Source: Candidatus Nomurabacteria bacterium | GTDB lineage: Bacteria > Patescibacteriota > Minisyncoccia > Phycocordibacterales > UBA2100 | Assembly (NCBI GenBank): GCA_943359705.1 | Contig: CALRIB010000002.1 | Span: forward strand, 1-33,090 | Reading direction: 5' to 3' | DNA length: 33,090 nt | Part shown: positions 3,137 to 32,217 of the stretch, piece by piece | How the letters are laid out: every line of letters starts with the position of its first letter | Position numbering within the stretch: the stretch's first letter is position 1 | Position numbers and translations under genes: made by a program | The notes under the pieces: model-generated | What the model saw: the letters and a program-made list of their open reading frames with translations, nothing else | Database searches by the model: none | What the model was told of the DNA's origin: nothing

Positions 3137-3209
3137 GGCGGCCGTCGGGAATCGAACCCGAATTGAGAGCTCCACAAGCTCCAGTGTGAACCGTTACACC
3201 ACGGTCGCC
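3137..3209 (-). tRNA. tRNA-His (anticodon GUG)
   Basis: Hand-folded cloverleaf on minus strand: G-1 plus GCGACCG acceptor (one A4:C69 mismatch), D arm GTGT/ACAC, anticodon stem GGAGC/GCTCT with loop TTGTGGA, T arm TCGGG-TTCGATT-CCCGA. No encoded CCA. Confidence 0.85.
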
Positions 3210-5614: not shown

Positions 5615-5926
5615 CTACGGCAGTCTCCCTCCGGTCAAGAGCAAGTTCGCCCATCCTACTTGAAGAGCGCTAAACGGGTCGGGTAGGTTGAGGAGAACTA
5701 GTACTCCAACGACAGCGACGAACGCTCCCGTTGTAATGTAAAGATACGTATATTGCTTTTTGAAGTAAAAATACAAAGAGAGGCCGAGAGGGGTGAAGTG
5801 GAGAATCACCGGAGGCAGATATAAAAACAAGATGTTCAGGATAAGGGCAAGTGCTCCCACCGCAGACAGCGCTGCAACAACTAAGACCGCGAGTGCCGGC
5901 ACGATCTGTTCTTTAATGAACGTCAT
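5615..5926 (-). CDS. Small membrane protein (hypothetical)
   Basis: Start set at ATG 5926 (MTFIKEQIVPALAVLVVAAL...) because the track ORF N-terminus (to 5974) runs through tRNA-Leu. 3 hydrophobic segments. ATG is 3 nt after the tRNA-Leu 3' end. Confidence 0.45.
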   Translation of the reverse strand: MTFIKEQIVPALAVLVVAALSAVGALALILNILFLYLPPVILHFTPLGLSLYFYFKKQYTYLYITTGAFVAVVGVLVLLNLPDPFSALQVGWANLLLTGGRLP

Positions 5927-5929
5927 TTG

Positions 5930-6011
5930 TGCCCGGGAGAGGACTTGAACCTCCATGCCTTGCGGCACACGCACCTCAAGCGTGCCAGTCTACCAATTTC
6001 TGCACCCGGGC
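5930..6011 (-). tRNA. tRNA-Leu (anticodon GAG)
   Basis: Acceptor GCCCGGG/CCCGGGC, anticodon stem CACGC/GCGTG with loop TTGAGGT, long variable arm TGCCGCAAGGCA, T arm GGAGG-TTCAAGT-CCTCT. Confidence 0.85.
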
Positions 6012-6020
6012 ATTAAAGCC

Positions 6021-6698
6021 TCACAGCTTCTCCTCCACTGTACCCAAAATCTTCTTTAATTTCAATCTCTTCCGAGAAAGACACACGACGCTCTTCGAAT
6101 AGTACATTTTTCTTAAAACGACTAGAGAATCTTTTTTAGCGTACTTTAGCTGGTAGAGCACGCGATTGGCACTTCCCGATGTCACGTGTCCAGATACGCC
6201 TGTCCGTTTTCTTATTTCACTTCGAAGCCAATCAACAAACGATTTGCTAGCAGAAGCGAATATCGTATAGAACATAAAACTTGAACGCCAGCGCGGATCC
6301 CAATAGGCATGAGAACATCCATCACCGTCGTACACTCCCCTAAGAAAATCCCAAAAGTACGCGGGAGGAATTTTCAAAGGACCGATTGTCTTGGACTTTC
6401 TCGGTGTAAGACCTATTGAAAGCAGGAAATCATAAAAGACTACATTTTTGAATTGTACGCGTAGGTATTCTTTTCCATTGCTCCCCTTCTTTTTCGTGAT
6501 ATTGAAATCTACTCCGATACATATACGAAAATTGTCGAGCTGTTCGCGATCTGCAGACGTAAGATCGATGAGCGAGAATGGGGGTGAAAGGCAGCCATCG
6601 GTAGCGAGTAGCCCAATCGCGTAAGCGAGTTTTGCTGACCAGGTTTGATCTATTTTTCTTCTTGCATTAAATCCCGGTTTCGGACCCCGCTTCCCCAT
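6021..6698 (-). CDS. LAGLIDADG-family homing endonuclease (two-motif, single chain)
   Basis: Two motifs, LAYAIGLLATDGCLS and FLRGVYDGDGCSHA. Visibly lower GC than its neighbours. Stop is 9 nt upstream of the tRNA-Leu 5' end. TGaTATCAT box (6705-6713) 6 nt upstream of the ATG. Confidence 0.85.
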   Translation of the reverse strand: MGKRGPKPGFNARRKIDQTWSAKLAYAIGLLATDGCLSPPFSLIDLTSADREQLDNFRICIGVDFNITKKKGSNGKEYLRVQFKNVVFYDFLLSIGLTPRKSKTIGPLKIPPAYFWDFLRGVYDGDGCSHAYWDPRWRSSFMFYTIFASASKSFVDWLRSEIRKRTGVSGHVTSGSANRVLYQLKYAKKDSLVVLRKMYYSKSVVCLSRKRLKLKKILGTVEEKL

Positions 6699-6780
6699 CG
6701 CACAATGATATCAGATACTCAAGGTAGTAGCGTCTACCAATTGTTGATAAATAAAAAAACACGAACTCCTCTAAAAACCC

Positions 6781-7624: not shown

Positions 7625-7696
7625 TGCCCTCGCGAGGAATCGAACCTCGAATAGCGGCTTAGAAGTCCGCAGTTATATCCATTTAACTACGAGGGC
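7625..7696 (-). tRNA. tRNA-Arg (anticodon UCU)
   Basis: Acceptor GCCCTCG/CGAGGGC, D arm GTTA-AATGGATA-TAAC, anticodon loop CTTCTAA (one A31:G39 mismatch in the stem), 4-nt variable loop, T arm CGAGG-TTCGATT-CCTCG. Confidence 0.8.
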
Positions 7697-8001
7697 AATT
7701 TGCTTCTTCCCCACGAACCGAATTGCACATAGGTCTTCCGCCTGTGGCAATTCGCACATCTTATCTCACATTTTTCTATCTCGCTAAGAAGGGACTTCCA
7801 TGACCAATGCCCGGATAACATTCTAGCTATAGTCTTGAACTTCTTTTTAGTATCCGTGTGATCAAATTCTAGAACGATTGGATCGTTTTCACCGCAATCC
7901 GCGCATTTCTTAGACGACAAGAATTCCAGCAATGCCCGCCGAATCCGGACTCGATGTCTCTTTTGTGCCGCATACAAGTCTGTTCTATTTTTGTAGGCCA
8001 C
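7687..8001 (-). CDS. HNH endonuclease (small, free-standing)
   Basis: CADCG...LEFDHTD...CEIRCANCHRRKT (Cys4 plus HNH core). Low GC. GTG start at 8001 with TGaTATAAT (8008-8016) 6 nt upstream. Last 10 nt overlap the tRNA-Arg(UCU) 5' end. Confidence 0.8.
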   Translation of the reverse strand: MAYKNRTDLYAAQKRHRVRIRRALLEFLSSKKCADCGENDPIVLEFDHTDTKKKFKTIARMLSGHWSWKSLLSEIEKCEIRCANCHRRKTYVQFGSWGRSKLPS

Positions 8002-8048
8002 CCCTGGATTATATCACTTCGTTCTAACCCACTTCTAGTCAGGTAAAT

Positions 8049-13281: not shown

Positions 13282-13685
13282 GCCAACTTCGACGTTTTGT
13301 ATATCTCCGGCTTGTACGCCGAGAGCCGCACGATGTCCACTGTAATACCGGCGGCAGCGAGCTTTTCTTTCAAATCCAGTACGTACTCGCCTTCTTGGTC
13401 ATAGCCAAGCGCAATGATGCTCGGCTTCGCTGCGATGATGTGGGGTATGTGGTCTCCCTCGTCGCCGAGCATCACCTCATCGACGAGCGGATTTTTTCGA
13501 ACATTCGCCAAGCGCGCTTTTTCCGAGTTGCGCGGCCGCGCACTCTTGATGCGCTCAACAATGTTGTCGCGCGCCACGGAAACGATGAGAAACGGTTCCG
13601 TCGCAAGAGCGCGGGCTTGCCGAAACATATCCTCGTGCCCGGCATGCACAATGTCGAACGTCCCGAAAACCATGATGCGCGTCAT
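13278..13685 (-). CDS. Cytidylyltransferase-fold nucleotidyltransferase, RibL-like (candidate FMN adenylyltransferase)
   Basis: [17 protein letters not shown] (GxFDxxHxGH) nucleotidyltransferase motif. 135 aa, same size class as archaeal RibL. ATGA overlaps at both ends (13278-13281, 13682-13685). Confidence 0.6.
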
Positions 13686-14029
13686 ATCTTTTCTCCCTCG
13701 AAATACTTGCGGACAAAATACACGTCGCTCGCAATCGCCGTGTGGAGTGCCGTGTCTGTGTCAAAGACTTGGCTCTCGCGGATTTTCTTTTCGAGTTTGA
13801 TGGTCACTTCTTTTCCGTACAGGTCATCAGCAAAATCCAGCAAGTGCGCCTCCAGTACTTTTCGTTTCTGGTCGGCAAAAGCGGCAGCAATAAAATTCTG
13901 CTTCCCCACCATGACCCGCGCCGCATAGATCCCATCATCGCTTCCCGTAAGCGGAATATTCACCGTCGGAAATCCGAGCCCGGCCGCCCGTTTGGTACCC
14001 TTTTCGACTACTCCTTTATACGTATTCAT
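13682..14029 (-). CDS. Riboflavin kinase (stand-alone RibF C-terminal domain)
   Basis: Start set at ATG 14029 ([27 protein letters not shown]...GIYAARV...[30 protein letters not shown]). The track N-terminus runs through tRNA-Ser. ATG is 5 nt after the tRNA-Ser 3' end. Confidence 0.75.
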
Positions 14030-14034
14030 ACCGG

Positions 14035-14119
14035 CGGAGGGGGTGGGATTCGAACCCACGATGCCTTTCGACATGGCAGTTTTCAAGACTGCTCGTTTGA
14101 ACCGCTCACGCACCCCTCC
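14035..14119 (-). tRNA. tRNA-Ser (anticodon UGA)
   Basis: Acceptor GGAGGGG/CCCCTCC, anticodon stem GCAGT/ACTGC with loop CTTGAAA, long variable arm CATGTCGAAAGGCATCG, T arm GTGGG-TTCGAAT-CCCAC. Confidence 0.85.
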
Positions 14120-14123
14120 GTGT

Positions 14124-14603
14124 TCAATCATTACCTTTCAACCAACTCTTTTCAAGGTGGTGCTCTTCGTAATGACAATTCGGGCAAACGAGCTCGAGAT
14201 TACTTGAATCGTTGTTCTTCCGGTTTCTATCTTTGTGATGCACATGCAATATTTCTTTCTTGTTGTAGCCGCATCGCTCGCAAGAGCCTCCCCGCTCCTC
14301 CAGAAGCCTGATTTTCATCGCCCGCTCGGCGACAACCTTATCACGCGGCCGACCGATCTTGTAGTGAATTCCTGTGCGATATTTATTCGAGCACGCACGG
14401 CTACAAGTTATTCTGTGCAAACTTGCGAGAATCGGCTTCGCACAAACGACACACGGTGACTCGTTCCGACTTGAGATACCGTAACATGCCTGGCCACAAT
14501 AGGCTCTGCCACTAGTAGCAGCGAGCTGAACAGGTCGACGATAAATTTGCTTACCGCAAATCGTGCACTTTGTATTTGGATTTCTTTTATACCGCTCCGC
14601 CAT
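14124..14603 (-). CDS. HNH endonuclease with N-terminal Cys-rich (zinc-finger-like) region
   Basis: Start set at ATG 14603 (MAERYKRNPNTKCTICGK...). ...CERCGYNKKEILHVHHKDRNRKNNDSSNLELVCPNCHYEEH is the HNH core. Low GC. TGgTATACT (14610-14618) 6 nt upstream. Stop 4 nt before the tRNA-Ser 5' end. The track extension to 14924 overlaps the HD gene. Confidence 0.8.
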   Translation of the reverse strand: MAERYKRNPNTKCTICGKQIYRRPVQLAATSGRAYCGQACYGISSRNESPCVVCAKPILASLHRITCSRACSNKYRTGIHYKIGRPRDKVVAERAMKIRLLEERGGSCERCGYNKKEILHVHHKDRNRKNNDSSNLELVCPNCHYEEHHLEKSWLKGND

Positions 14604-14641
14604 TCGGCCAGTATACCAGTTTTCCTTTACTCCAAGCGGGG

Positions 14642-15283
14642 CTATTCGCTCTCGCTGCCCGCAGCATCTATCCACTCGACTCCGGCTTTCTCGAACTGCG
14701 TCTTTAAATCTTTCTTTACTGCATCGAGCAGGTCCTTGAGCTCCGGAAAAGGTCGCGTTGCTTCGTCGAATGCGGCGACGGCGGCATCGGCGTACGACGC
14801 GTGGAATTCTTTGGGTATGTACATCTCCACGCCGCCTTCGGCGATATGCAGAAATCCCTCGATCTTGTCGAGCGCACGCACGAACCGCGCTTCTACCGTC
14901 CGCTGGTCGGTGTATTCGCGCCACAAATCGTAGACGGATTTTCCAAATGCTATGTCCCCCGTCATCTCACGCATCGCCTCGTCTTCTTTGGCCGTTTTGC
15001 GGACGGTCATTTTTTTCCCGGCGAGCATTTGCTCGTATGCGTCGATATCCCCGGTCTTCGCCTCCCCGAGGTCATGGACGAGGGCGAGCGAAAGCGTGCG
15101 ACCCATGTTGAGGCGCACCCTACACTCCGGGCCAATGATGAGCGCCATAAGCGCCAGGCGCCACGAATGCGCGGCGACCGTGTTTTGCTTGCCCCGTAGC
15201 GACGCGCCGTAGCGCTCGATGCTCTCGAGCTCCTTCGTGCGTCGCAGAAATATGAGGATATCTTCCATTTCCCGTCGTTTCAT
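14642..15283 (-). CDS. HD-domain phosphohydrolase, YfbR-like 5'-deoxynucleotidase
   Basis: ...NTVAAHSWRLALMALII...LALVHDLGEAKTGDI... (H...HD...D metal ligands in YfbR-like spacing). Confidence 0.7.
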   Translation of the reverse strand: MKRREMEDILIFLRRTKELESIERYGASLRGKQNTVAAHSWRLALMALIIGPECRVRLNMGRTLSLALVHDLGEAKTGDIDAYEQMLAGKKMTVRKTAKEDEAMREMTGDIAFGKSVYDLWREYTDQRTVEARFVRALDKIEGFLHIAEGGVEMYIPKEFHASYADAAVAAFDEATRPFPELKDLLDAVKKDLKTQFEKAGVEWIDAAGSESE

Positions 15284-32189: not shown

Positions 32190-32217
32190 AGTATAGCACG
32201 TTACGCATTAATGTCAA
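32190..32217 (-). promoter_or_regulatory. Consensus sigma-70 promoter driving the candidate sRNA
   Basis: Minus strand TTGACA (32212-32217), 16 nt, TATACT (32190-32195). Confidence 0.65.

Follow-up and report, generated by a model that had tools for sequence, protein, structure and literature searches.

At transfer RNA genes, integrases are known to land on the 3′ end, and homing endonucleases are known mainly from phage tRNA clusters; group I introns can also occupy the anticodon loop of bacterial tRNA genes. The closest precedents for the genes described here are SegB of phage T4 and the F-Tfl enzymes of phage T5. SegB is a free-standing GIY-YIG homing endonuclease encoded within the T4 tRNA gene cluster, where it recognizes a conserved tRNA-gene motif and is co-transcribed with the tRNAs, its transcript being cut between the last and the stop codons during tRNA maturation (PMC2330249). 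F-TflI/II/IV of T5 and HNH endonucleases of mycobacteriophages are also placed in tRNA clusters (cited in PMC2330249 and PMC6409571). LAGLIDADG homing endonucleases are found in insertions of CPR rRNA genes (Tsurumaki et al. 2024, cited in PMC11809585).

The 33,090-nt stretch of DNA analyzed here (the window) comes from a Kaiserbacteria-like Patescibacterium. Three nuclease ORFs are present in it, each of them intact, one of the LAGLIDADG type and two of the HNH type (HNH1 and HNH2), together with seven tRNAs, all uninterrupted according to ARAGORN and an Rfam scan of the whole window. An initial annotation had proposed that these are selfish genes whose position at tRNA 5′ flanks reflects either homing or retention, a view now supported by filled, empty and decayed loci and by the fidelity of each family to one tRNA. 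We consider it likely that all three are free-standing genes for homing endonucleases that target tRNA genes, with cleavage and homing themselves inferred.

Nuclease genes at the 5′ edges of three tRNA genes

The features concerned are as follows:

5615..5926, minus strand: small membrane-protein ORF, ATG 3 nt past tRNA-Leu (ORF list, Pfam)
5930-6011, minus strand: tRNA-Leu(GAG), a variant allele with D-stem and anticodon stem unlike the common allele (ARAGORN, Rfam)
6021..6698, minus strand: putative free-standing two-motif LAGLIDADG homing endonuclease gene, 225 aa, stop 9 nt ahead of tRNA-Leu (ORF, Pfam, family alignment)
6037..6065, minus strand: sigma-70-type promoter-like site TTGAAA-17-TACAGT in the last LAGLIDADG codons, 25 nt ahead of tRNA-Leu (independent scan)
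6705..6713, minus strand: extended −10 (TGATATCAT), 6 nt ahead of the LAGLIDADG ATG, implying a leaderless mRNA
6718..6742, minus strand: tRNA-Leu(GAG)-like fragment AATTGGTAGACGCTACTACCTTGAG (alignment to tRNA-Leu)
7625-7696, minus strand: tRNA-Arg(UCU), D-stem pair 13:22 = A:T (ARAGORN, Rfam)
7687..8001, minus strand: putative free-standing zinc HNH endonuclease gene HNH1, 104 aa, GTG start, overlapping tRNA-Arg by 10 nt (ORF, family invariants)
8008..8016, minus strand: extended −10 (TGATATAAT), 6 nt ahead of the HNH1 GTG, conserved in genome and metagenome relatives
8022..8030, minus strand: GGGTTAGAA motif, conserved in relatives
13682..14029, minus strand: riboflavin kinase ORF, ATG 5 nt past tRNA-Ser (Pfam Flavokinase)
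14035-14119, minus strand: tRNA-Ser(UGA) (ARAGORN, Rfam)
14124..14603, minus strand: putative free-standing zinc-ribbon HNH endonuclease gene HNH2, 159 aa, stop 4 nt ahead of tRNA-Ser (ORF, Pfam)
14127..14155, minus strand: promoter-like site TTGAAA-17-AATGAT in the HNH2 3′ end, ending 7 nt ahead of tRNA-Ser (consensus match only)
14610..14618, minus strand: extended −10 (TGGTATACT), 6 nt ahead of the HNH2 ATG

ARAGORN, Rfam and the ORF list bore out the coordinates that the initial annotation had assigned to the nuclease ORFs, the tRNAs and the downstream ATGs, as well as its statement that every nuclease gene shares the strand of its tRNA. All three ORFs are intergenic, outside any intron or intein, and the tRNA genes are intact. 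The LAGLIDADG gene lies between rplS and tRNA-Leu, HNH1 between a hypothetical gene and tRNA-Arg, and HNH2 between an HD-domain gene and tRNA-Ser, the flanking genes being ordinary syntenic housekeeping genes. Two of the three nuclease genes were missed by gene callers, which points to a systematic annotation gap.

The three proteins comprise a monomeric, two-motif LAGLIDADG enzyme and two unrelated zinc-binding HNH enzymes. Both LAGLIDADG motifs, LAYAIGLLATDGC and FLRGVYDGDGC, reside in one chain, and D34 and D124/G125/D126/G127 are invariant in an alignment of 26 homologues, each motif thus keeping its catalytic acidic residue. The Pfam LAGLIDADG_3 match is marginal (22.7 bits against a cut-off of 22.5), and a family profile search identified PDB 2DCH as the closest solved structure (E=6e-6). 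HNH1 scores below the Pfam HNH threshold (17.7 versus 21.4), a model matched by 13 of 31 relatives at E<0.01; its assignment rests on the family invariants CxxC..FDH..N..CxNCH (C32xxC35, F45-D46-H47, N83, C81xxC84-H85). Neither PDB sequence searches nor Foldseek of the HNH1 model (pLDDT 89) gave a significant match, the best Foldseek matches being HNH effectors (Cap5 and type I-E HNH Cascade) at only E=2-4. HNH2 passes the same Pfam cut-off (26.2 versus 21.4) with the motif CERCGY...HVHHKD...N...CPNCH. Each ORF belongs to a large Patescibacteria-wide family: more than 2200 homologues for LAGLIDADG, nearly all from Patescibacteria; 1281 for HNH1, mostly named ‘hypothetical’; and 952 for HNH2, at 60-80% identity.

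The initial annotation had also described an extended −10 (TGnTAnnnT) exactly 6 nt before each nuclease start codon. A scan of all window ORFs of at least 40 aa recovered this arrangement four times, at the three nuclease genes and at one glycosyltransferase gene. From this placement, transcription should begin at the start codon, yielding a leaderless mRNA. We reject the idea that the signal is peculiar to nuclease genes, as a plain −10 hexamer occurs at the same spacing at pilM and four other genes; leaderless expression is thus a habit of the organism, in whose genome Shine-Dalgarno sites are rare. What remains is that each nuclease gene appears to own its promoter, on the strength of consensus matches only. 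The −10 hexamer 6 nt ahead of the start codon recurs in LAGLIDADG relatives, and the HNH2 extended −10 is similar to the native tRNA-Ser promoter TGGTACAAC of empty loci. By inference, the GGGTTAGAA motif upstream of HNH1 may correspond to the native tRNA-Arg(UCU) −10 region (GGCTAGGAT) of endonuclease-less loci, which it resembles.

Expression of the tRNAs themselves is probably served in part by the nuclease coding sequence, since tRNA-Leu has its own promoter-like site in the last endonuclease codons, and tRNA-Ser probably does likewise. The former is conserved across filled loci and is retained at four endonuclease-less loci, where it still encodes the LAGLIDADG C-terminal peptide; relatives of HNH2 carry similar TT(A/G)(A/G)AA-17-TAnnnT sites. 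A candidate tRNA-Arg promoter inside HNH1, TTGCCA-17-TGCAAT, was not accepted because most copies are without the conserved A at −11, and co-transcription of HNH1 with tRNA-Arg is therefore assumed. Given the promoter-like sites in the other two genes, co-transcription and RNase P processing would be obligatory only for this pair, in which the HNH1 stop codon TAG coincides with tRNA positions U8-A9-G10. The ATGs reported at 5926 and 14029, 3 and 5 nt past tRNA-Leu and tRNA-Ser, both proved correct, and the abutment of tRNA-Ser and riboflavin kinase is conserved in relatives. ORF starts 0-5 nt after tRNA 3′ ends are in general excess, which fits the earlier proposal that RNase P and 3′-end processing shape these mRNAs; with SegB as precedent, this proposal may be regarded as plausible.

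Filled, empty and decayed loci in relatives

The initial annotation had suggested comparing orthologous tRNA loci in related genomes. We did so in 80 rplS-anchored genomes and 67 metagenome loci, with relatives read as 20-kb stretches only and not as whole genomes, and found the loci filled, empty or decayed, with one tRNA identity per family: LAGLIDADG pairs with tRNA-Leu(GAG), HNH1 with tRNA-Arg(UCU) and HNH2 with tRNA-Ser(UGA), each at the 5′ edge of the gene. Among the rplS-anchored genomes, LAGLIDADG is present at 19 of 70 tRNA-Leu(GAG) loci, each time between rplS and the tRNA, HNH1 at 5 of 56 tRNA-Arg(UCU) loci, and HNH2 at 9 of 34 tRNA-Ser(UGA) loci, on either strand and among varied neighbors. 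Most orthologous loci are thus empty of a nuclease gene. Independent look-ups agreed with these pairings. Among close metagenome relatives of HNH1, 15 could be evaluated; every one lies against tRNA-Arg(UCU), and 12 share the 10-nt overlap with TAG at tRNA positions 8-10. More distant relatives abut tRNAs Pro, Gly, Val, Trp, Lys, Arg-UCG/ACG and Ser, some in phage-like arrays. The three-of-three adjacency in the window had been judged unlikely to be chance, and a 1.14-Mb sample of related loci upholds this judgment. Of the 40 family ORFs, 36 end within −36..+56 nt of the 5′ end of a tRNA on the same strand, against 168 of all 6249 ORFs (2.7%) within −40..+60 nt. The 78 distant viral LAGLIDADG relatives that served as a negative control include none next to a tRNA.

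The families have been gained, lost and are decaying at exactly these tRNA sites, with catalytic residues conserved and the tRNA intact. One copy contains two in-frame stops (L021), another survives as a fragment of 86-87 codons (L020), and in four loci (L004, L010, L014 and L071) nothing is left but the promoter and the final ~17 codons. Other nucleases also occur at such positions: a LAGLIDADG-like ORF (L007) and a PD-(D/E)XK ORF (L048) at tRNA-Ser, and a GIY-YIG ORF at tRNA-Arg(GCG) in L071.

The nuclease ORFs were said to be AT-richer than their surroundings, and so they are, at 44, 45 and 48% G+C against 56% for the window. All 32 copies lie 7-8 G+C points under their host, and copy G+C tracks host G+C (r ~0.91); low G+C was rejected as proof of recent transfer on this ground. 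Between LAGLIDADG and rplS similarities there is a weak correlation (rho 0.31, Mantel p=0.004). Taken together with the G+C tracking, this means that vertical descent and loss may account for much of the history, and no clear recent transfer was caught in the compared loci. Scans of viral contigs returned no close viral relatives of LAGLIDADG or HNH2, so no phage vector has been identified. An exact-protein look-up of the window's LAGLIDADG matched the same genome only, and a corresponding look-up of its L19, aimed at near-identical strains with empty sites, found no record.

Target clues and competing explanations

The alleles of the adjoining tRNAs provide a clue regarding the targets. The common tRNA-Leu allele, exemplified by the endonuclease-less relative L006 (GCGCAGGTGGCGAAATTGGTAGACGTACTACCTTGAGGTGGTAG...), occurs at 0 of 19 filled versus 22 of 51 empty loci (p=2.9e-4), and the tRNA-Arg pair 13:22 = C:G at 0 of 21 filled versus 33 of 51 empty loci (p=1.1e-7), both uncorrected for shared ancestry. 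Variant tRNA-Leu alleles are also present at 25 of 47 empty loci, and no allele pattern divides filled from empty tRNA-Ser loci. The data neither show nor exclude that tRNA allele and LAGLIDADG lineage travel together (Mantel p=0.11, with a non-significant partial rank correlation of 0.12); similarity among tRNA alleles is not tied to that among LAGLIDADG copies, so co-conversion of the linked tRNA is not shown. A further clue lies upstream of the LAGLIDADG gene, where the fragment at 6718..6742 corresponds to tRNA positions 14-37, from the D-loop to the anticodon, and has one inserted nucleotide but no acceptor stem. It aligns to the consensus tRNA-Leu at 18 of 20 endonuclease-bearing loci, and in most of these 18 the score beats all 200 shuffles. 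Similarly, a fourth HNH family has the 5′ half of tRNA-His upstream of its endonuclease gene, the order in L055 being intact tRNA-His, 5′ half-tRNA, endonuclease gene.

Coincidence might be entertained for three ORFs ending beside tRNAs in a compact genome with 7 tRNAs per 33 kb, all the more as 55% of sampled tRNAs have some ORF ending nearby, but it is refuted by the enrichment of family ORFs over background and by the same pairing in dozens of independent genomes and metagenome contigs; we give it a negligible chance. It is also very improbable that the genes are what remains of group I introns in tRNAs, or of a tRNA-targeting phage or island that had integrated. The tRNA-Leu-like fragment does end at the anticodon, and HNH1 relatives do occur in viral contigs. 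A group I intron-encoded endonuclease was nevertheless rejected, given seven uninterrupted tRNAs and a whole-window Rfam scan that returned tRNAs only, with no intron family at gathering score. A tRNA-targeting integrative element fares no better: no integrase and no tRNA 3′-end repeats were seen near the three ORFs, the insertions are single genes on the tRNA 5′ side, the sole duplicated tRNA piece is a 5′ segment, and neither the ordinary housekeeping neighbors nor the lack of close viral relatives of LAGLIDADG and HNH2 suits such an origin.

Two further readings accept the association with tRNAs and explain it differently. The proteins might be domesticated, that is, old, vertically inherited and tRNA-co-expressed host proteins that are repeatedly lost, for instance regulators, or factors connected with tRNA, that derive from nuclease folds. 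The existence of thousands of homologues, full-length, 60-80% identical and under strong purifying selection, G+C that tracks the host and the weak but significant agreement with the rplS tree would all suit this reading. We nonetheless doubt it strongly, since only 9-27% of orthologous loci are filled among close relatives, pseudogenes and remnants exist, and the catalytic residues are invariant, beyond the DNA-binding parts. Moreover, highly diverged LAGLIDADG lineages, only 51-54% identical, occur in hosts whose L19 proteins are 77-87% identical, HNH1 relatives are found in phage tRNA arrays, and different nuclease folds replace each other at the same tRNA. Alternatively, nuclease genes might land widely and survive only upstream of tRNAs, where strong promoters and short non-essential leaders render insertion harmless, without any recognition of the tRNA gene. 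The insertions do occupy the few bases between tRNA promoter and tRNA +1, tRNA expression signals are preserved, and sites of this kind are shared by four unrelated nuclease families. If genes landed at random and were then filtered, however, families and tRNAs would be mixed, whereas each subfamily keeps one tRNA identity across varied neighborhoods and strands. Base-precise junctions (the HNH1 stop codon at tRNA positions 8-10 is one example), tRNA-derived fragments upstream of two families and filled loci that never carry the common tRNA allele are also difficult to reconcile with harmless retention, which we regard as unlikely.

Under the preferred reading of homing to tRNA genes, each enzyme would cut its cognate tRNA gene, or its promoter or 5′ junction, in genomes without the endonuclease, and repair of the break from a filled copy would copy the endonuclease gene in. 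The resident tRNA would remain uncut where it departs from the common allele in the D-arm or the anticodon arm (Leu, Arg) or, alternatively, where the insertion splits the target site (Ser, Arg). Harm to the host would be low because tRNA expression is preserved: in LAGLIDADG, and probably in HNH2, the tRNA promoter would be written into the last endonuclease codons, while tRNA-Arg would be co-transcribed with HNH1 and freed by RNase P. That cut would strip the HNH1 mRNA of its stop codon and may thereby throttle expression of the enzyme itself.

More tentatively, and as no more than one possibility, the cassettes could be naturally occurring ‘cleave-and-rescue’ drives in the genome of a cell. 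The endonuclease would destroy a tRNA gene that is single-copy and essential, in its common allelic form, and the adjoining recoded tRNA would be uncuttable because of compensatory D-arm or anticodon-arm changes. A cell taking up the DNA, for example by natural transformation, would then survive only by converting to the filled allele. The disabled 5′ pieces of tRNA that precede the Leu and His endonuclease genes would be what is left of the destroyed copy, perhaps with a second use as operators, and L055 would represent the same arrangement with the rescue copy on the opposite side. It is possible that the diversity of D-arm variant tRNAs in these bacteria reflects, in part, an arms race.

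Significance and comparison with known systems

New here are at least three large families (~950-2200 homologues each), mostly annotated ‘hypothetical’ or uncalled, specialized on the 5′ edge of single chromosomal tRNA genes in Patescibacteria, hosts with extremely reduced genomes. A selfish gene appears to fit the few bases between promoter and tRNA without harm to the tRNA, by means of a leaderless start, a promoter in its own last codons and a stop borrowed from the tRNA. Because the tRNA sequences are known, the families offer concrete, testable enzyme and target pairs that could yield new long-site nucleases.

The window LAGLIDADG resembles the enzymes of CPR rRNA-gene insertions in host group, two-motif architecture and, presumably, a highly conserved stable-RNA gene as target. 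Its nearest solved relative, 2DCH, is I-Tsp061I, a putative homing endonuclease from an archaeal rRNA intron. Those genes lie within rRNA-gene insertions or introns, whereas the window gene is free-standing upstream of an uninterrupted tRNA, with no intron detected. For HNH1, the T5 and mycobacteriophage enzymes are comparable as HNH-type genes in tRNA arrays, and distant HNH1 relatives are found in such arrays too, also overlapping a tRNA 5′ end; the phage enzymes belong to phage arrays, in contrast to the close HNH1 family (62-82% identity), which sits in Patescibacteria chromosomal synteny (tRNA-Val, tRNA-Arg, rplS, tRNA-Leu).

I-TevI is reportedly autorepressed via an operator that mimics its homing site (Edgell, Derbyshire and Belfort, 2004). 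The disabled copy of tRNA-Leu positions 14-37, the presumed target, lies just upstream of the LAGLIDADG promoter in a similar manner. Enzyme bound there could repress its own gene, although there are no binding data, and the fragment may just as well be left over from the original insertion.

SegB offers a close likeness: a free-standing endonuclease gene among tRNA genes, matched in HNH1 by a stop codon inside the downstream tRNA. There are also differences. SegB, which belongs to the GIY-YIG type, comes from a virulent phage and spreads in co-infections, and the window genes are LAGLIDADG and HNH genes in cellular chromosomes. The SegB site is a T-arm common to many tRNAs, whereas each window family is tied to a single tRNA identity. 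SegB has no promoter of its own, in contrast to the putative leaderless promoters of the window genes, and, unlike SegB, LAGLIDADG and HNH2 hold tRNA promoter-like sites within their 3′ ends.

Nuclease genes preceding tRNAs

The gene set of the window, which has a G+C content of 55.6%, is that of a Kaiserbacteria-like patescibacterium and includes ribosomal protein L19 (rplS), PilM/N/O-like proteins, RuvX, an ECF sigma factor, riboflavin kinase, an FAD-synthetase-like cytidylyltransferase and an HD-domain hydrolase. Seven tRNA genes were found by ARAGORN and Rfam alike, and neither detected any other structured RNA in the window. A same-strand nuclease ORF precedes three of the six minus-strand tRNAs, and all coordinates reported for these features in the initial annotation were correct upon re-examination.

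Nuclease ORFs of the window
6021-6698, minus strand: LAGLIDADG gene, 225 aa with two LAGLIDADG motifs, stop 9 nt before tRNA-Leu(GAG)
7687-8001, minus strand: HNH1, HNH-like, 104 aa, GTG start, 10-nt overlap with tRNA-Arg(UCU)
14124-14603, minus strand: HNH2, zinc-ribbon HNH, 159 aa, stop 4 nt before tRNA-Ser(UGA)

The LAGLIDADG protein has more than 2200 homologues (60-74% full-length identity), acidic residues D34, D124 and D126 of its two motifs are invariant among 26 aligned members, and the family profile matches an archaeal rRNA-intron enzyme (PDB 2DCH, E=6e-6). HNH2, with 952 homologues, scores above the Pfam HNH threshold. HNH1 falls below that threshold, and its 1281 homologues are named 'hypothetical' almost throughout. 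A CxxC...FDH...N...CxNCH signature is nonetheless invariant across the HNH1 family, Pfam HNH is matched by 13 of 31 relatives, and a confident predicted model (pLDDT 89) contains a hairpin-helix core. A Foldseek search with this model gave no significant match, the best insignificant ones being HNH effectors. HNH1 is thus accepted as a putative HNH-type nuclease on motif evidence, without confirmation of the fold.

The start of HNH2 was assigned to the ATG at 14603, which is supported by homologues and promoter position. The longest ORF in this frame (266 aa, 14124-14924, minus strand, GTG at 14924) runs into the end of the HD-domain gene at its 3′ side and was rejected as an extension artefact. 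Public gene calls for the window's own genome omit HNH1 and HNH2 and stretch riboflavin kinase across tRNA-Ser; the HNH2 protein is consequently absent from the protein collection. Small leaderless nuclease genes of this kind escape annotation.

Filled and empty tRNA loci

Since L19 lies less than 10 kb from all three sites, a single L19 scan of 185,579 species genomes yielded 80 related loci covering all of them, which were analyzed with tblastn and ARAGORN. The presence/absence comparison proposed in the initial annotation could thereby be carried out, and loci with and without the endonuclease gene were found for all three families. LAGLIDADG occurs in 19 loci, each time between rplS and tRNA-Leu(GAG), while 51 loci with the same tRNA lack it. 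HNH1 is found at 5 of 56 tRNA-Arg(UCU) loci, counting the window, and invariably on the 5′ edge of the tRNA. HNH2 occupies 9 of 34 tRNA-Ser(UGA) loci, where its strand follows that of the tRNA and the neighboring genes vary.

Family HMMs were run on every ORF with 70 or more codons (6249 in total) in 1.14 Mb of related loci. Of the 40 ORFs detected, 36 end between -36 and +56 nt from a same-strand tRNA start, versus 168 of 6249 ORFs ending near a tRNA start in the background. The four others include a fragment (L020) and an interrupted gene (L021), both still between rplS and tRNA-Leu, and one tRNA-His case (L055) described below. Four distant homologues on long contigs, looked up independently, showed the same layout. 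The proposal that this arrangement is not due to chance is borne out: the observation holds, and chance comes nowhere near explaining it.

An HNH1 scan of metagenomes provided 67 further loci. Among the close relatives, 15 could be evaluated and every one adjoins tRNA-Arg(UCU), 12 of them with the identical 10-nt overlap, which makes the HNH1 stop codon TAG equal to tRNA residues U8-A9-G10 and encodes the last residues, K-P-S/L, in the acceptor stem. Distant relatives (35-55% identity) abut tRNAs for Pro, Gly, Val, Trp, Lys, Arg-UCG, Arg-ACG, Ser and Thr; several reside in dense phage-like tRNA arrays, and some are on viral contigs. As a negative control, none of 78 distant viral LAGLIDADG relatives abuts a tRNA. 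In two HNH1 relatives (L085:3001-3341 and L091:3001-3334), the ORF ends in a degenerate copy of the 10-nt tRNA 5′ end (GTCTTTGTAG and ATATTGTAG, respectively), followed by TATATT and a complete tRNA-Arg. At these two loci, the mobile unit would seem to include the first 10 nt of tRNA-Arg.

In related loci, tRNA-His(GUG) is directly preceded on its 5′ side by a fourth HNH family with 28-30% identity to HNH2, and other nuclease folds occupy comparable sites, those of the L048 and L071 ORFs having been assigned by reading their sequences.

Further nuclease genes at tRNAs of related loci
L008:12237-12816, fourth-family HNH
L012:14743-15319, fourth-family HNH
L024:15307-15805, fourth-family HNH
L053:5338-5878, fourth-family HNH
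L056:13769-14396, fourth-family HNH
L007:3142-4176, minus strand: LAGLIDADG-like ORF, 344 aa, overlaps tRNA-Ser(UGA)
L048:2104-2577, minus strand: PD-(D/E)XK (PDDEXK_5) ORF, overlaps tRNA-Ser(UGA)
L071:2311-2661, minus strand: small GIY-YIG ORF, ends 5 nt before tRNA-Arg(GCG)

No fourth-family gene lies beside the tRNA-His of the window (3137-3208). In L056 and L024, the HNH gene has upstream of it a 5′ portion of another tRNA-His allele, ending at the anticodon, and in L024 this partial tRNA is followed by the palindrome TTGTGG-tata-CCACAA. The sole exception in layout is L055:11850-12508, a His-type HNH gene that is downstream of an intact tRNA-His and preceded by the 5′ half of a second allele, as though, of two tRNA-His copies, one was destroyed while the intact one sat on the opposite side.

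Junctions, promoters and leaderless expression

Directly upstream of the LAGLIDADG promoter is AATTGGTAGACGCTACTACCTTGAG (window 6742-6718), which matches residues 14-37 of the most common tRNA-Leu(GAG) allele plus one extra base, without the acceptor stem. Of 20 filled loci, 18 have such a tRNA-Leu-like element, which in most scores better than every shuffle; in some loci it reaches position 44, and there the anticodon-stem strand TGGTAG coincides with the TGnTA of the extended -10. An independent promoter scan located TTGAAA-17-TACAGT (6065-6037) within the last LAGLIDADG codons, 25 nt before tRNA-Leu. Given that this site is kept in filled and remnant loci, tRNA-Leu appears to retain its own promoter, apparently written into the endonuclease C-terminus.

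At empty loci, the native tRNA-Ser promoter is TGGTACAAC, separated from the tRNA by 7-12 nt, and the extended -10 of HNH2 (TGGTAYACT) is similar to it; this likeness suggests, as an inference from sequence, insertion between the tRNA promoter and +1. A second promoter-like site is present in the 3′ end of the HNH2 ORF. For HNH1, a conserved GGGTTAGAA located 5 nt upstream of the extended -10 is similar to the native tRNA-Arg -10 region of empty loci (GGCTAGGAT). No consistent internal promoter was found in HNH1, and tRNA-Arg is therefore, again by inference from sequence, probably co-transcribed and freed by RNase P, a cut that would leave the HNH1 mRNA without a stop codon. Elsewhere in the window, two near-identical full promoters, TTGAC(A/T)-N14-TGCTATACT, lie 2 kb apart at 32198 and 30148 on the minus strand.

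The extended -10 noted in the initial annotation is present at all three nuclease ORFs, with TGnTAnnnT exactly 6 nt 5′ of the start codon, and at one other window ORF. Ordinary genes also carry a -10 hexamer at precisely this distance (10620, 20152, 11408 and 1554 on the minus strand, 22711 on the plus strand), and Shine-Dalgarno sites are rare in this genome, so leaderless translation is evidently normal here and leaderless mRNAs appear to be the usual expression mode of first genes. Across 81 loci, 35 of 290 tRNAs have the ATG of an ORF of at least 90 codons within -1 to +5 nt downstream, with about five per offset in this range versus fewer than one per offset farther downstream. Examples are tRNA-Leu followed by cobalamin adenosyltransferase, the window ATG at 5926 right after tRNA-Leu, and tRNA-Ser followed by riboflavin kinase (window ATG 14029), an abutment conserved with or without HNH2. 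These data support the suggested tRNA-punctuated units that would release near-leaderless mRNAs, although no transcript data are available.

Target clues, turnover and known systems

The common tRNA-Leu sequence TTGGTAGACG[CT]ACTACCTTGAGG is found in 0 of 19 filled versus 22 of 51 empty loci (Fisher p=2.9e-4). Resident tRNA-Leu genes of filled loci carry either a D-loop change or paired D-stem and anticodon-stem changes, and variants occur in 4 of 4 remnant loci. Similarly, tRNA-Arg(UCU) has C:G at D-stem 13:22 in 0 of 21 filled versus 33 of 51 empty loci (p=1.1e-7); both tests ignore shared ancestry. Such patterns are suggestive only, and would fit enzymes whose recognition site in the cognate tRNA gene spans the D-arm to the anticodon and which the resident alleles escape. 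No allele pattern parts filled from empty loci at tRNA-Ser, where the insertion itself may split the recognition site. Similarity among tRNA alleles is not paralleled by similarity among LAGLIDADG proteins, so the data do not demonstrate that a linked resistant tRNA is carried along. The main reading of the initial annotation, selfish endonuclease genes tied to tRNA 5′ flanks, is supported by the presence/absence comparison that it proposed; what the enzymes actually target, whether resident alleles are immune, what the tRNA-like fragment does and every RNA-level step remain matters of inference.

Decay is evident in L021, with two in-frame stops, in L020, reduced to a fragment, and in L004, L010, L014 and L071, where only the last ~17 LAGLIDADG codons are left before the tRNA, still ending ...RLKIEKMLAIVGEQL-stop. 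LAGLIDADG proteins are just 51-54% identical in hosts whose L19 is 77-87% identical, and the two similarities correlate weakly overall (rho 0.31). These decay stages, the divergence from L19 and the varied nuclease folds are signs of a homing-endonuclease life cycle. All 32 endonuclease copies lie 7-8 points below host G+C and track it (r=0.91-0.97), so their AT-richness is intrinsic or ameliorated, which counts against recent transfer; no near-identical endonuclease genes were found in divergent hosts among the relatives compared.

Full-text search of an incomplete library returned no account of Patescibacteria with endonuclease genes flanking chromosomal tRNAs on the 5′ side. LAGLIDADG genes of this group are known from rRNA-gene insertions (PMC11809585, citing Tsurumaki 2024), and T5 F-Tfl enzymes and mycobacteriophage HNH genes lie in tRNA clusters (PMC2330249, PMC6409571). 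The closest known system is phage T4 SegB, a free-standing GIY-YIG endonuclease whose gene lies within the T4 tRNA cluster and is missing from relatives. The gene is transcribed together with the tRNAs, and as these mature its transcript is cleaved between the last codon and the stop codon; the enzyme recognizes a T-arm motif of tRNA genes (PMC2330249). The window genes share the same logic, but differ from SegB in residing in cellular chromosomes, with one family per tRNA and compact junction devices.
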